This document shows positions 6,102-11,254 of a stretch of DNA of 24,237 nucleotides, piece after piece. This stretch comes from an uncultured archaeon (GTDB lineage: Archaea; Asgardarchaeota; Lokiarchaeia; Sigyniarchaeales; SOKP01): NCBI GenBank assembly GCA_964388035.1, contig CAYLZE010000075.1, positions 1 to 24,237 of the forward strand, read 5' to 3'. Position 1 is the stretch's first letter. Each line of letters starts with the position of its first letter. The position numbers and the translations under genes are program-made. Under the pieces are notes generated by a model. The model searched no databases. It saw nothing but the letters and a program-made list of their open reading frames with translations, and was not told where the DNA came from.

Positions 6102-8087
6102 ATGAATTCTGCCAATTTTTTAAATTATAAGAACCTTTATATCATTCCTACGTTCCATTCCCGCGTCGAGTTCGCAAAATTAACGCGCATTGCCTTCTTC
6201 CAAGTATTTCCGGATCTAATTGCCGTAGAGTTACCAAGTAACACGAGAAAAGAAGTCCTGGAAGCCGTTCAGCGCCTTCCTTATTTATCTTTAATTGGCT
6301 ACGCGGATTCATTACGCCCAGATCGACTTAATTTCATTCCCATAGACCCCGGGGATTCCATAATTGAAGGAATTCGTTTGGGACTCGAATTTAACACGCC
6401 TATCGAGTTCATTGACTTATCGGTAAAAAATTATGACCCACCCCCTACCCACCTACCTGATGATCATTCCATTACCTCGATTGGTTTAAATCACTTTTAT
6501 AAAAAAGTCTCAGAATACTTTCAAGAAGATTATTTCAAGAAAAAAGAAACAATTAGAAGTAAAGTCAATCTGAAATACTACCTTGAGCATCTAGAGAAAG
6601 ATGAAGAAAAAAGTGATACAATCGAAGTGGATATACTTAGAGAAAAGTACATGGCAACCCATCTTCTAAAGTTGATGAATCTTCATCATAGAATCCTTTT
6701 TATTGTAGGCATGGCTCATTGGGAAAATATCCGATACTTTTTAGACCATCCAGAAGAGCTCGAAGATATCAACTCGGAGCTGGAACCACATAAATTAATC
6801 AAAATATATAATATTAGAGGTAAGGATGCTCGATTTTTATTAAGAGAGCTCCCTTATCATGTTGTGAAGTGGATGAAATTTCGGGATTCGCATGCTAAAG
6901 AAGATATTGAACGGATGGAATCGATAGAGGATCTTCTTCAAACATTTAATCTTTATGATAAGAAAAAACACGTGCATGAAATATTACTAAAAGCTAAAAG
7001 CGAATATGAAGAAGAATTTAAAGAATTTATCAATCTACATCAGTTAAAATCGTTATTTCAATACATACGCAATATTAGCCTTACTGATAAGCGCTTGCTT
7101 CCTAACTTATTTCATTTTTTGATTTCTGCTAAATCTATCATTGATGATGATTATGCTTGGAAAGTATTAAAAATCGCTACAAGATATCCTCATGATGATC
7201 AAGAAGACCATTATGAAACTTTGGAATTATCTCAAGAAGGTGCACGTGATTCTACCGGACGATATATTCGATTACGCAGACACCATCCTTTTTCCGATCA
7301 AGATTCAAGAGATATTCCTTTAAAAAAAAGACCAAAGGAAAACCATGAAGGAGAATGGAGAAATGAATGGGAAAAGAATAAATGGAGAACTGTTTCCTAT
7401 CCTCCTGAGGACGTCATTGAAGAAGATTATTTTGCTTACATTAGAAATAAGACCATTAAAAATCTTAAAAATAAAAAAATAAAGATCGAACAATTTAAAA
7501 CCTCCATGATGGATGGAATTGCAATTAGAGAAACCTTACGAAATTGGGCAATTAAGAAACAAATTTATGTGAGAAATGAACATCGGATTCAAGGAAAAAT
7601 TGATACTATAATCGTTATTTTTGATGTGGATGATAAGGGTGAAGAGAAGTATCCTTATAGACTAACTTGGTGGGCAGAACACGAAAAAGAAAGCGATTTA
7701 GCTTTTTATGCAACGAATCCGGGAGATTACTTGATTGGTCCTGGAATATCTCACGTGGAAATCGGAGGTTTACTTTCCTTTTTTCCGGCCATAAAAATTA
7801 GAGAAATTTTTTCTCCCTTTGAGGACGAGATTTACTCCGATACTCTAAATAAAGCAGAAAGATTATTAAAAGCAGGAATCCTTTTTTCCAAGCAGAAATA
7901 TATCGCTTACGTGGCAGAAATGCCTCCCCGAAAATATTTTCATGATATGGCAGGTAAAAAGAATCGAACCTTGATTTACATTCCAATGGCGGATTTTAAT
8001 AAAGAAAGCTTGAAAAGGATCAAACATCTTCACATCTTGGCGGGGAAAGATAAAAGAAAAATTGCACATGAATACATTTTCTTATGA
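6102..8087 (+). CDS. Conserved hypothetical protein with N-terminal TIKI/TraB/ChaN-like domain; likely partner of the MoxR ATPase
   Basis: 661-aa ORF with N-terminal His (PTFH), IAVELP, REKYMA and ILFIVGMAHW, a pattern resembling the TIKI superfamily. The C-terminal half is unassigned. Confidence 0.6.
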   Translation: MNSANFLNYKNLYIIPTFHSRVEFAKLTRIAFFQVFPDLIAVELPSNTRKEVLEAVQRLPYLSLIGYADSLRPDRLNFIPIDPGDSIIEGIRLGLEFNTPIEFIDLSVKNYDPPPTHLPDDHSITSIGLNHFYKKVSEYFQEDYFKKKETIRSKVNLKYYLEHLEKDEEKSDTIEVDILREKYMATHLLKLMNLHHRILFIVGMAHWENIRYFLDHPEELEDINSELEPHKLIKIYNIRGKDARFLLRELPYHVVKWMKFRDSHAKEDIERMESIEDLLQTFNLYDKKKHVHEILLKAKSEYEEEFKEFINLHQLKSLFQYIRNISLTDKRLLPNLFHFLISAKSIIDDDYAWKVLKIATRYPHDDQEDHYETLELSQEGARDSTGRYIRLRRHHPFSDQDSRDIPLKKRPKENHEGEWRNEWEKNKWRTVSYPPEDVIEEDYFAYIRNKTIKNLKNKKIKIEQFKTSMMDGIAIRETLRNWAIKKQIYVRNEHRIQGKIDTIIVIFDVDDKGEEKYPYRLTWWAEHEKESDLAFYATNPGDYLIGPGISHVEIGGLLSFFPAIKIREIFSPFEDEIYSDTLNKAERLLKAGILFSKQKYIAYVAEMPPRKYFHDMAGKKNRTLIYIPMADFNKESLKRIKHLHILAGKDKRKIAHEYIFL

Positions 8088-8394: not shown

Positions 8395-10116
8395 TTATTT
8401 ATCAATCGAATCTATCAAGTTTTCAATTTTGCTTTGAATTACCTCGGGTTTTTCTGCTTCGGCACCCGCTAATGCTAAGCGTCTCTCTATACCTTCTCTG
8501 TGAATCGTGTTATGCGCACAGAAGGGAATCTCCAGAACTTTACTGGGATCATCAGGATCGATCACTCCATAATGAACTAAGCATTTACATACTCTATCCA
8601 GATCAAAATTATAGGCATCTTGAAAATGCATTGACGAGATCATGAGGTTTTTCGTTTGAAGAAAATTACCTGCTGATGATAAATTAGGGGAAAACACAAG
8701 GCGAGCAAAAGACTGATATGTTTTACTCGTTAAAAGTTTCTGCGGATTCTTCACGTATTTTATGGCACCAGCAAAAAAGTAGGTCTTCATCATTTGCCTG
8801 TATCCCAAATCGGTCATATCATCGACGAACTTTGCAACCGTTTGAGCAATAGCTCCATAATCTTCAAAATTGATTCCCTTTAATAAACCCGTGGGCTTGG
8901 GAACTTTTTTTTCTGCTACCATGTCATGTACTTTATTGGCCCATCTAATCAATCCTTCCACGTCAAAAAAGTTCTCTATAGGTTCCCATTCATTTTTTTC
9001 GTTAATTACAGCGATGGTCGCAAAGCCACAATCGGAATGACTTAACATGGAAAAGGGAGGTTGGTTGTCAAACCATGCGAGTAATTTCGTAAATTTTCCC
9101 GTAGTTGCTATGGGATAAAATTTAGTTATGACATTATTAGTGTGCTTATTAATTGCTACTTTTAAATCAGAAGTGGTATAACGGAGATCCATTAATTCTT
9201 CATAGTTGATTCTCCCGCATAAGGATACGGGCTGAAAAACTACACCGGCAATAACGTCTGCATTATCTCTGGCAAAATCTAAGATATTCCCAATTTGATT
9301 ATCATTGATTCCTTTTGCTACGGTGGGAACTAACATGACCCCTTTGAATCCTAATTGTCTACAATGCTCAATCACGCGTTTCTTCAAGGGCCATAAATTG
9401 ACACCTCTCACCTTCTTCCATATCTCTGGAGCATCCGTGGCATCAAATTGTAAGTAAAGTGCATCCATCCCGGCATCCACTAATTCTTTCACATACTCAA
9501 CCGACTTTCCCATGCGTACTCCATTACTAGTAACCATCACTTCAATAAATCCTAACTCTTTTGCTTTTCGGATTATTTCCGGTAAATCTTCTCTCACTGT
9601 GGGTTCCCCACCCGAGAGCTGTAATAATACTGCCGAAACGGGTTTCATGGAACGAAAATGTTCCATTATTTGTACGATTTGGTCAAAAGTAGGTTGTACC
9701 ACGTACCCCTTTGCACTTGCGTTAGCAAAGCAAATTGGACATGCCAGATTACAGCGATTAGTAATATCAATCAATGCTATGCATGGTGCTGACTTATGAT
9801 TAGCACAAATACCACAATCATAAGGACATCCACTTGATACCTCCTTTATTCCAGAAGAAACATACTCGGGTTTTGTGAGATTGGCACCTGTGGAACCAAT
9901 TTCATTAGTGAAATTTTGTACCCATATATAATCTTCAGGGTCTATTGATAATTTGTCCCTGAAAGTACCATGTGTTTGGCACTGTTTTCGCATCATCACC
10001 CAATTTTTTTCCGGATCCACGTAAATCTCCGCGGGGATTGGTTCTAAACATTCAGGACATAAACTGGTGGTCTTACGAATGATTTTTTCAGTCTTACTAA
10101 CGGTTTTTTCAGTCAT
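8395..10116 (-). CDS. tes: Radical SAM tetraether lipid synthase (Tes / GDGT-MAS family)
   Basis: N-terminal SLCPEC...CQTHG, GCPYDCGIC..H, radical SAM CNLACPIC, SGGEPT, LYLQFD, FQPVS..GR, HSDCG, MHFQDAYNFD..RV..C.VHY and IPFC match the MJ0619/MA_1486 family architecture. Confidence 0.85.
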   Translation of the reverse strand: MTEKTVSKTEKIIRKTTSLCPECLEPIPAEIYVDPEKNWVMMRKQCQTHGTFRDKLSIDPEDYIWVQNFTNEIGSTGANLTKPEYVSSGIKEVSSGCPYDCGICANHKSAPCIALIDITNRCNLACPICFANASAKGYVVQPTFDQIVQIMEHFRSMKPVSAVLLQLSGGEPTVREDLPEIIRKAKELGFIEVMVTSNGVRMGKSVEYVKELVDAGMDALYLQFDATDAPEIWKKVRGVNLWPLKKRVIEHCRQLGFKGVMLVPTVAKGINDNQIGNILDFARDNADVIAGVVFQPVSLCGRINYEELMDLRYTTSDLKVAINKHTNNVITKFYPIATTGKFTKLLAWFDNQPPFSMLSHSDCGFATIAVINEKNEWEPIENFFDVEGLIRWANKVHDMVAEKKVPKPTGLLKGINFEDYGAIAQTVAKFVDDMTDLGYRQMMKTYFFAGAIKYVKNPQKLLTSKTYQSFARLVFSPNLSSAGNFLQTKNLMISSMHFQDAYNFDLDRVCKCLVHYGVIDPDDPSKVLEIPFCAHNTIHREGIERRLALAGAEAEKPEVIQSKIENLIDSIDK

Positions 10117-10541
10117 GCGTCATAGCCTCTAATTAATTGAAATATAATTGTTTAATAAAAACTTTATTTGAATAATAAACCCATTAATATAAATAAAGTT
10201 TCCAATAAAAAACCGATTATGATTGATATGGTGGTTTTTTTTTTCTCCTTAAAATAAAGTCAGGTTAGCTCTGAATATTGGGCTCTAATTACATTTATCA
10301 TAAAGATATTCCTTGCATCTTTAAAAAGAGGAATAACTTTTTGAGAGGGAGGTTAATTAATGGAACATGATAAAAAATATTTTATAAGATTTCACATCTT
10401 ATCTTAAATTTCATAATTTTTAGAAATTACTTAATAAAAGTAGCTTTATTCTTCAATTGGATGGTAAAAATTTAGTCTAGCAGTAAATAGCTTTTTATAA
10501 TTACATGAATTCCTTACAAAAGTGAATAGACATGAGATTTT

Positions 10542-10703
10542 AAAAAGGTGACTCTCCTAAACCGCGACCTAATTACAAGGTCAATAAAATAAAAAGGGGA
10601 AGGAGGGCGAATAAAGCGTAGAACATGCTACGCTAACCAAAAGACAAAATTCCAGCCTATCCCGAAGCGGAAATGGGTATCCAGGTTGGTTTAGGAGAGT
10701 CAT
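10542..10703 (-). ncRNA. Candidate structured small RNA (~160 nt) of unknown family
   Basis: Perfect 15-bp terminal stem 10549-10563/10688-10702. Internal hairpins at 10566-10582 and 10615-10634 and an imperfect one at ~10656-10685. TATA lies at -30..-23 relative to 10703, and a U5 tract immediately follows the stem. Confidence 0.6.
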
Positions 10704-10725
10704 GGGTTTTTTTAAGTATCAAAAT

Positions 10726-10740
10726 CATATATACTTTTTT
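10726..10740 (-). promoter_or_regulatory. Archaeal BRE + TATA box for the candidate sRNA
   Basis: The minus strand reads AAAAAAG-TATATATG. The TATA at 10733-10726 is -30 to -23 relative to the first base of the stem region (10703). Confidence 0.55.
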
Positions 10741-10867
10741 AATAAAATTTTGATAATTTAAAATTTTTATCTATTATGTATTATAATATTGATGTAAGTA
10801 TATAAATGAATGGATATATAATACTTTATTCAAAGGAGAAAAGATATAAGTCAAGTTTGAATCAAAA

Positions 10868-11254
10868 ATGAGTGCGAATAAAAAAAATCCTACCCCAATG
10901 GAAGAAAAACAGAAGATTAAGATTACCTATAAGATGATCATTTTTTTCATTCTAGGAGGTTGTGTCTCTTGGATAAACATGTGGTTTATTTTGATCTTCA
11001 TGGAAATTTGGTCTTATTTAAGCATAATTTTCACAACAATTATTCCTTGTGTAGGAATTGGACTAAAAAATCGCCTATGGGCCTATAGCTACATTCTTGG
11101 ATTTTCAATAGCCGGGATTCCTTTCATGATTTTCATGGATTTATTTATAGGAGGGTATACCTTTATAACTACCTTTTTAATTTTTATTATAATATGGTTG
11201 ATTTTTTGGAAGGCGTGGCGAACTATCGGAAGTATAAAAAAAGAGATTGATTAA
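10868..11254 (+). CDS. Hypothetical small integral membrane protein (~4 TM helices)
   Basis: 128 aa with four hydrophobic stretches and basic termini. Confidence 0.8.
   Translation: MSANKKNPTPMEEKQKIKITYKMIIFFILGGCVSWINMWFILIFMEIWSYLSIIFTTIIPCVGIGLKNRLWAYSYILGFSIAGIPFMIFMDLFIGGYTFITTFLIFIIIWLIFWKAWRTIGSIKKEID

Follow-up and report, generated by a model that had tools for sequence, protein, structure and literature searches.

A multicopy family of candidate structured RNAs in Lokiarchaeia with predicted bulge-helix-bulge introns in a conserved U-rich box

By sequence comparison, the element described here is a member of a multicopy family of structured RNAs with 1–14 copies per genome. It lies in the window, by which we mean the whole 24,237-nt stretch of Lokiarchaeial DNA that was analysed, and appears to be the gene of a folded RNA of ~120 nt that is common to most Lokiarchaeia and previously undescribed. 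That it is a real RNA gene is, in our judgement, almost certain. The overall model, to which we give a reasonable probability, is that of a stand-alone, housekeeping-like RNA of Lokiarchaeia that would be matured in a tRNA-like manner and would serve as a protein-binding scaffold or decoy with two single-stranded boxes.

Locus, fold and distribution

The element is located in an AT-rich spacer of 750 nt between a Tes-like gene and a divergent membrane-protein gene. The window's genome was 96.7% complete and held five copies. The features of the locus are listed below by coordinates in the window, with the supporting evidence in parentheses.

10547..10701, minus strand: RNA gene, whose predicted processed precursor spans G+1 (10701) to the 3' CC (10547) (end conservation in 69 homologs; spliced fold)
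10688..10702, minus strand: 5' arm of terminal helix P1, with U-1 (10702) able to pair with N at 10549 (P1 pairs compensated, 10/10)
10549..10563, minus strand: 3' arm of terminal helix P1 (pairs with 10688..10702)
10679..10684, minus strand: 5' exon half of box A, in which CUGG is a strand of the predicted bulge-helix-bulge (BHB) central helix and AU the first bulge
10650..10678, minus strand: predicted 29-nt BHB (HBh') intron comprising a hairpin, the partner strand CUGG (10655–10652) and the bulge AA^U (23 different inserts, one site)
10637..10649, minus strand: 3' exon half of box A (columns 95–100% conserved, 86 distinct sequences; pattern in 124/134 family genomes)
10615..10634, minus strand: hairpin P3 (6/6 pairs compensated; first five pairs retained in 21/21 sister-family copies)
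10584..10614, minus strand: box B (family consensus UGAUUUCGCC) and a single-stranded pyrimidine tract with an anti-Shine-Dalgarno (anti-SD)-like CCUCC
10565..10583, minus strand: hairpin P4 of 5–7 bp with a 5–7-nt loop, missing from one genus
10542..10549, minus strand: 3' signature N-C-C, then a U5 terminator tract (C in 60/69 and 61/69, next positions U in 56–61/69)
10726..10740, minus strand: proximal BRE/TATA candidate, from which the start would be A-2, 10703 (spacing typical only of some sister-family copies)
10756..10773, minus strand: conserved distal AT-rich motif, at the distance where TATA typically lies in the family; it may serve the divergent gene instead (36/57 syntenic versus 7/114 non-syntenic copies)
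8395..10116, minus strand: radical SAM gene of Tes-like (tetraether lipid synthase) type, next to the RNA on its downstream side at the orthologous locus (NF045702, E 6.5e-133)
10868..11254, plus strand: divergent gene for a 128-aa membrane protein, upstream neighbour at the orthologous locus (synteny)

The Tes-like gene scored 443.9 bits against NF045702, just below the cut-off of 450, and the 128-aa membrane-protein gene matched no Pfam or NCBIfam family. The synthase is apparently intact, and homologs of ~50% identity were found in 5/5 other Lokiarchaeia tested. A 20-nt inverted repeat (18/20 matching; 10241–10260 and 10823–10842, 562 nt apart) brackets the RNA gene and lies upstream of both divergent genes, possibly as paired regulator sites. 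In a genome of the same genus, a spacer of ~480 nt between the RNA and tes contains further GC-richer stretches that have no evident counterpart in the window. A degenerate copy-like sequence also occurs in the window's genome (contig C92 near 7061, minus strand), with a damaged core, an intact 3' end and no 5' arm.

Comparison of homologs shows a conserved minus-strand RNA fold of P1, P3 and P4, in which two boxes, also conserved, are exposed mostly as single strands. The predicted order is P1, box A (AU4-5GUCU4-5GG), P3, box B (UGAUUUCRCC), pyrimidine tract, P4, P1', N-C-C and U-tract, with the boxes on either side of P3; from G+1 to the stem's end, the most frequent length is 118–120 nt. 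Across 86 distinct sequences, in an alignment fitted to the covariance model, 97.9% of cells were paired and 16/19 pairs had compensatory changes; in an independent alignment made with MAFFT, 19/23 pairs were compensated. None of 500 shuffles was as good, and slid structures reached at most 42%. The window segment itself had a fold z of −5.8, with equal stability in 0/200 shuffles. Within P1, all ten pairs showed compensatory changes, and G-U (24) far exceeded A-C (4), which fixes the minus strand. A plus-strand RNA, which folds equally well in isolation, was ruled out by this asymmetry together with the BHB geometry described below. In sister-family copies, the pyrimidine tract is folded into a hairpin. 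Box A may form either a small, weak hairpin with a UUUU loop or a 17-nt loop closed by only 3 bp, and its columns are invariant, so that covariation cannot decide between the two.

These results bear out much of an earlier note on this DNA, made from the letters alone. It had described a perfect 15-bp inverted repeat (10549–10563/10688–10702), hairpins at 10615–10634 and 10566–10582, CC followed by U5 (10548–10542) and an A-rich, TATA-like stretch (10740–10726), all of which are present. Its proposal of a discrete, stable Asgard non-coding RNA on the minus strand agrees with the homologs, covariation, strand asymmetry and intron content, and the homologs with compensatory changes that it had asked for across Asgard genomes were found (16/19 pairs).

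The 19-nt core was present in 124/134 genomes of the window's GTDB family, 1–14 times each, and in 1/265 other Asgard genomes, where it lies on a 1.8-kb contig that is probably misbinned. The covariance model matched in 50/50 family genomes. A diverged form was found with broader models in the sister family, where the core is exact in 11/14 genomes; its carriers include the cultured species Promethearchaeum syntrophicum MK-D1 and Ca. Lokiarchaeum ossiferum, as well as Ca. Harpocratesius repetitus. A further multicopy relative, found in CR_4, shares box B and the pyrimidine tract and lacks most of box A. Outside Lokiarchaeia, three models gave no convincing match among the 56–132 candidates scored per genome, a search whose first model missed real homologs in the sister family. 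All homolog counts treat kin as if they were independent.

Several observations concern the margins of the family. Elements in other families that are pyrimidine-rich and closed by a stem, and whose ends resemble G+1 and N-CC (e.g., in a closed 1.42-Mb genome, C1:419729–419821), are possible distant members. Viral contigs contained four motif matches, of which one alone, at a contig end, resembles a copy. Truncated copies lack the terminal helix but retain box A and a word resembling box B, and might be mRNA-borne sites for the same protein; one lies in tandem behind a full copy in L. ossiferum (2498046–2498063), and another directly follows the stop codon of a HAD-like gene in Promethearchaeum, as a 3' UTR element conserved in four genomes.

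Rfam scans of the window and two sister-family loci matched no family; over the window nothing reached a gathering score, and only chance matches (E>0.7) over other stretches and weak lncRNA profiles were returned, in line with the novelty implied by the earlier note. Literature searches, with subscription journals outside their scope, found no description of the RNA, and no paper on lineage-specific non-coding RNAs of Asgard archaea was found. The RNA failed membership of every family tested, and would thus be new as a class.

The length of 118–120 nt, together with the 0/25 family genomes over the Rfam 5S cut-off, had suggested a divergent 5S rRNA. This identity was rejected: the family has a separate, permuted 5S, the sister family carries an ordinary 5S alongside the RNA, and the window element has no RF00001 match. 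The 5S gene of the family is circularly permuted (in the window's genome, contig C112:11620–11800, plus strand), with the 3' part first, then a tetraloop-capped helix I and the 5' part, which explains the missing Rfam matches. It sits inside a BHB from which excision and ligation would restore the normal sequence, and its break point differs among genes, with at least two versions. Contig C73 has a further, weaker 5S-like match (7715–7765, minus strand; E 0.037). SRP RNA, RNase P RNA, tRNA and tmRNA were likewise rejected, with no Rfam or ARAGORN match to the element and full-length SRP and RNase P genes on contigs C68 and C53; the separate 5S, SRP and RNase P genes and the ARAGORN result uphold the earlier judgement by eye that it is none of tRNA, 5S, SRP or RNase P. 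A likeness of the P4 loop to the SRP Alu UGUNR motif is not conserved.

Predicted splicing and end maturation

Compared with the family consensus, the window copy has 29 extra nucleotides (10678–10650) within box A. In an initial search that fixed no insert base, six copies of the family had inserts at precisely this position, and 6/6 inserts had all four central pairs with CUGG, two 3-nt bulges and an intron helix, against 0.3% of shuffled inserts. With a metagenome scan that fixed two of the four partner bases, the total was 23 different inserts of 29–35 nt at one site, forming 11 clusters at 60% identity. The central helix has 4/4 pairs in 20 and 3/4 in three; that of the window insert has 4/4, two being G-U. 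The partner strand varies among inserts (CCAG, CCGG, CUGG or UCAG). Excision after the second base of each bulge restored the exact intronless consensus in 23/23, with the invariant CUGGAUUUUUGUCUUUUGG regained. An intron-side outer helix is present in the window insert and in 17/23 under a strict rule, and an exon-side outer helix is absent. The nearest exon relatives of intron-bearing copies are mostly intronless (up to 97.6% identical; often 88–98%). Comparison of the copies shows repeated acquisition of BHB-shaped inserts at one box A site, and we regard this pattern as the best indirect support for transcription of the locus and for the need for an intact box A.

It is highly likely that a two-subunit splicing endonuclease would cut the HBh' motif and that a ligase would rejoin box A. 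The window's genome encodes two EndA paralogs and many intron-containing tRNA genes, in some of which the intron position is non-canonical. The (αβ)2 type of EndA is common in Asgard archaea, HBh' is counted as canonical, and a survey of this group reported repeated gains of BHB introns by an unknown route (10.64898/2026.10.13.758758). Most tRNA genes of the window's genome carry at least one intron, ARAGORN mis-calls several isotypes (Pyl, Stop), and one tRNA gene on contig C26 looks 5'-truncated.

The intron revises two points of the earlier note. An "imperfect CCU..CCC/GGG..AGG stem" assigned to the RNA is the BHB intron and not a part of the mature fold, and the U-rich segment at 10652–10637 is found where it was placed, except that its leading GAA is the 3' end of the intron. 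With the intron removed, the mature RNA would be ~126 nt long (G10701 to C10547 minus 29 nt), not ~160 nt. Three further ideas about the insert were rejected. The window intron was not copied from a tRNA intron or another site of the same genome, in which no match beyond 13 nt was found elsewhere. A terminal BHB circularising the whole RNA fails by eye, as the upstream bases do not pair with NCCU. A likeness to an anticodon loop, with U at "37" and a missing closing pair, has a geometry that follows from any BHB and is not evidence of mimicry.

The ends were compared in 69 homologs. A-2 is found in 64/69, U-1 in 46/69 and CC in 60–61/69, G+1 is conserved, and the helix between varies. The variable N before CC is a purine in 40/69 (A35/U24/G5/C5). 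The sister family has a similar start and a looser 3' end. The optimum for E. coli RNase P is A(-2)U(-1), with a 3' RCC pairing with GGU of L15, and non-tRNA substrates with long stems exist (PMC10731613). The conserved ends (A-2, U-1, G+1 ... stem-N-CC) fit this RNase P consensus, in a comparison that applies bacterial rules to an archaeal host. At the position that corresponds to L15 of E. coli, the RNase P RNA of the window's genome has GGU; some archaeal RNase P enzymes of type A retain this element (PMC6565675).

Across the window's family, TATA-like words peak 56–70 nt upstream of the stem, not at ~32, and the −60 bin of syntenic copies contains 16 against an expectation of 4. The window copy has TATA candidates at both distances, and the conserved motif at the distal position may belong to the divergent gene. 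In the sister family, TATA lies at −30 in 8/19 copies, several of them MK-D1-like, so that little or no leader would be needed; by analogy with this subset, the start at 10703 proposed in the earlier note is possible for the window copy. A sigma-70 promoter scan has no bearing on an archaeon. Many copies have, 17–58 nt upstream, a stretch that is complementary to the pyrimidine tract and follows its variants: G in the tract is accompanied by a partner C in seven copies and A by a partner U in 12, and A with C never occurs. A leader-tract helix of at least 11 bp was found in 46% of syntenic copies versus 24% of cross-paired and 7% of shuffled ones. The window copy has no good helix of this kind (−3.1 kcal/mol). 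The TATA peak at −56 to −70 and the leader-tract covariation together point to a leader that is removed.

We consider it nearly certain that the RNA would be transcribed as a precursor ending in the U-tract. In many copies the leader would first pair with the pyrimidine tract. RNase P would then, with somewhat better than even likelihood, remove the 5' leader by reading A-2/U-1/G+1, with the 3' N-CC paired with GGU of L15, and would leave a helix ending in NCC. A-2 could instead be a start site and not an RNase P determinant.

Protein-binding model and competing explanations

Box A is U-rich, invariant, largely unpaired and has no detectable nucleic-acid complement, which argues for recognition by protein. 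Neither box A nor box B had a complement in 16S or 23S rRNA above chance (longest 7–8 nt), and pairing of box A and the pyrimidine tract with start-codon regions was no better than that of shuffles. The mature RNA would likely work by protein binding, not as a base-pairing guide; a C/D or H/ACA guide was rejected, as there are no conserved boxes and the rRNA complement of 7–8 nt is at chance level.

As the likeliest partner we tentatively propose an Sm-like (SmAP/Lsm) ring docked on the U-tracts of box A, in which case the RNA would either form a small Sm-RNP or titrate the ring. The spliced box A of the window copy, CUGGAUUUUUGUCUUUUGG, includes an Sm-site-like AU5G and a second U-tract. The RAU4-6G word has 95–100% column conservation in the window's family, with AU4G in the sister family, and the window's genome contains four LSM-family matches (three clear paralogs and one weak). 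SmAP binds U-rich single-stranded RNA in archaea (PMC3710371), and the in vivo roles of archaeal Sm-like proteins are poorly characterised (PMC9887622). In the window's AT-rich genome, AU4-6G words occur at ~0.8 per kb, so that Sm-likeness alone is weak. A stronger version is unlikely: an archaeal snRNA-like RNA whose Sm site, into which tRNA-type introns have repeatedly come, would make up a stable small RNP with the Asgard Lsm paralogs, its assembly gated by splicing of the intron. As the family was not detected outside Lokiarchaeia among the genomes searched, direct ancestry of the U snRNAs is not claimed.

The RNA might instead be a trans-acting anti-SD sRNA (cuckoo/RoxS-like), whose CCUCC tract would repress translation at ribosome-binding sites and would be masked by the leader until processing. 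The CCCUCCUCC tract is common in copies of the window's family and of CR_4, is in the same sense as the 3' end of 16S rRNA and lies next to a leader that covaries with it, and SD words precede 19% of long ORFs versus 4% at a control position. However, the tract decays to generic pyrimidines in paralogs and is folded into the hairpin in sister-family copies, its pairing with start regions did not exceed that of shuffled tracts, and it is box A, rather than the tract, that is invariant. We regard this explanation as improbable.

The conserved G+1 start and stem + N + CC end across two families also suit a tRNA mimic (tmRNA-, Yrl- or viral-TLS-like), in which the NCC end would receive A and be aminoacylated or would engage the ribosome or another tRNA-binding enzyme. 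The invasion by tRNA-type introns accords with this, and the tRNA genes of the window's genome mostly have no encoded CC, which implies that the CC of the RNA family was specifically selected. Against such mimicry, which we hold to be quite improbable, the discriminator varies (A35/U24/G5/C5), ARAGORN was negative, and there is no T-loop consensus, 7+5-bp geometry or tag ORF.

Because 62/206 distinct copies lie at the orthologous locus, on the same strand and ~200–580 nt upstream of tes, a cis-regulatory leader or riboswitch of this gene was considered. The neighbours of the other 144 copies are unrelated (174 clusters for 243 proteins) and stand in either orientation (68 same versus 51 opposite), and a given Pfam family is seen in at most 3 of 110 neighbours. 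The tes loci of the sister family are without the element, which is found elsewhere in the same genomes, and the stem is followed by a U-tract of its own. The unrelated neighbours in either orientation and the element-free tes loci argue against a cis leader, which is very unlikely, and comparison of the loci shows that the RNA is independent of neighbouring genes.

A MITE or another non-autonomous DNA element with terminal inverted repeats, a possibility that the earlier note had named, would account for a perfect 15-bp TG...CA inverted repeat and 1–14 dispersed copies per genome. This explanation is highly implausible, because 60–68 of 69 copies are not flanked by target-site duplications and the terminal repeats are covarying, not identical: they differ among copies of one genome, with pairing kept through G-U. 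One position is fixed across genera, spliceable introns are present, and the commonest neighbour families include no transposase or integrase.

The Y- or vault-like identity suggested in the earlier note, for which the terminal stem, pyrimidine-rich loop and U tail resembling a Y RNA would speak, has next to no probability, since Ro60/TROVE was found in 0/37 and the major vault protein (MVP) in 2/37 family genomes versus the RNA in ~93–100%, and P1 has no conserved bulged-C Ro helix. No MVP match was found in the window's own genome. MVP homologs are patchy in Lokiarchaeia (4/61), L. ossiferum included.

Significance and comparison with known systems

This multicopy RNA family is close to universal in two families of Lokiarchaeia and occurs in both cultured species, which makes its expression, processing and partners testable now. 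With more than 20 unrelated introns at one site, it provides a compact system for how Asgard BHB introns arrive. If box A is a ligand of Asgard Sm-like rings, it would bear on what SmAPs bind in vivo and on how Sm-RNPs could have preceded the spliceosome; were the snRNA-like reading true, the RNA would provide, in a living prokaryote, a model of the Sm-RNP around which eukaryotes built the spliceosome.

A Y RNA consists of a terminal stem, a pyrimidine-rich loop and a U tail. The present RNA shares its size, paired ends, pyrimidine-rich loop and U tail with Y and vault RNAs, but differs in having no co-occurring Ro60 or MVP and no Ro-binding helix. With the cuckoo (CCUCCUCCC) anti-SD sRNAs of Alphaproteobacteria, the window's family and CR_4 share the CCUCCUCCC word, whereas here a single multiloop tract stands in place of repeated hairpin loops and is not single-stranded in the sister family, and the RNA has no Rfam match.

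The phage P4 CI RNA is a long-stem RNA matured by RNase P. As in C4 and CI RNAs, many copies of the present family have an upstream leader complementary to an internal loop. The extended terminal helix, A-2/U-1/G+1 and 3' NCC are shared with the phage P1/P7 C4 RNA and pre-4.5S RNA (PMC10731613). In contrast to C4 and CI RNAs, the RNA is chromosomal, archaeal and multicopy. Neither a target repeat downstream of it nor an immunity operon linked to it was seen, and Rfam scans gave no C4 match.

The Sm-class snRNAs (U2, U4, U5 and U7) and SmAP/Hfq-bound RNAs share with the family an invariant AU4-5G and a second U-tract beside a hairpin. The spliced family word fits the context of the U2 Sm site and overlaps the U7 site. 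Unlike in Sm-class snRNAs, the word lies near the 5' end in a closed multiloop, not between 3' stem-loops, and the RNA has no evident cap, spliceosome partner or target complementarity.

The closest likeness of the insert is to archaeal tRNA and rRNA BHB introns of the HBh' type, which share with it a central helix of 4 bp, two bulges of 3 nt on the 3' side of that helix, an intron hairpin, a length of 29–35 nt, repeated and unrelated gains at one site and a two-subunit EndA present (PMC4090602; 10.64898/2026.10.13.758758). Here the host differs, being a free-standing small RNA, and the exon-side outer helix is missing. Literature searches found no BHB intron host of this kind, the Asgard survey covering tRNA only. 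The BHB intron is of a known kind, in what appears to be a new class of host.
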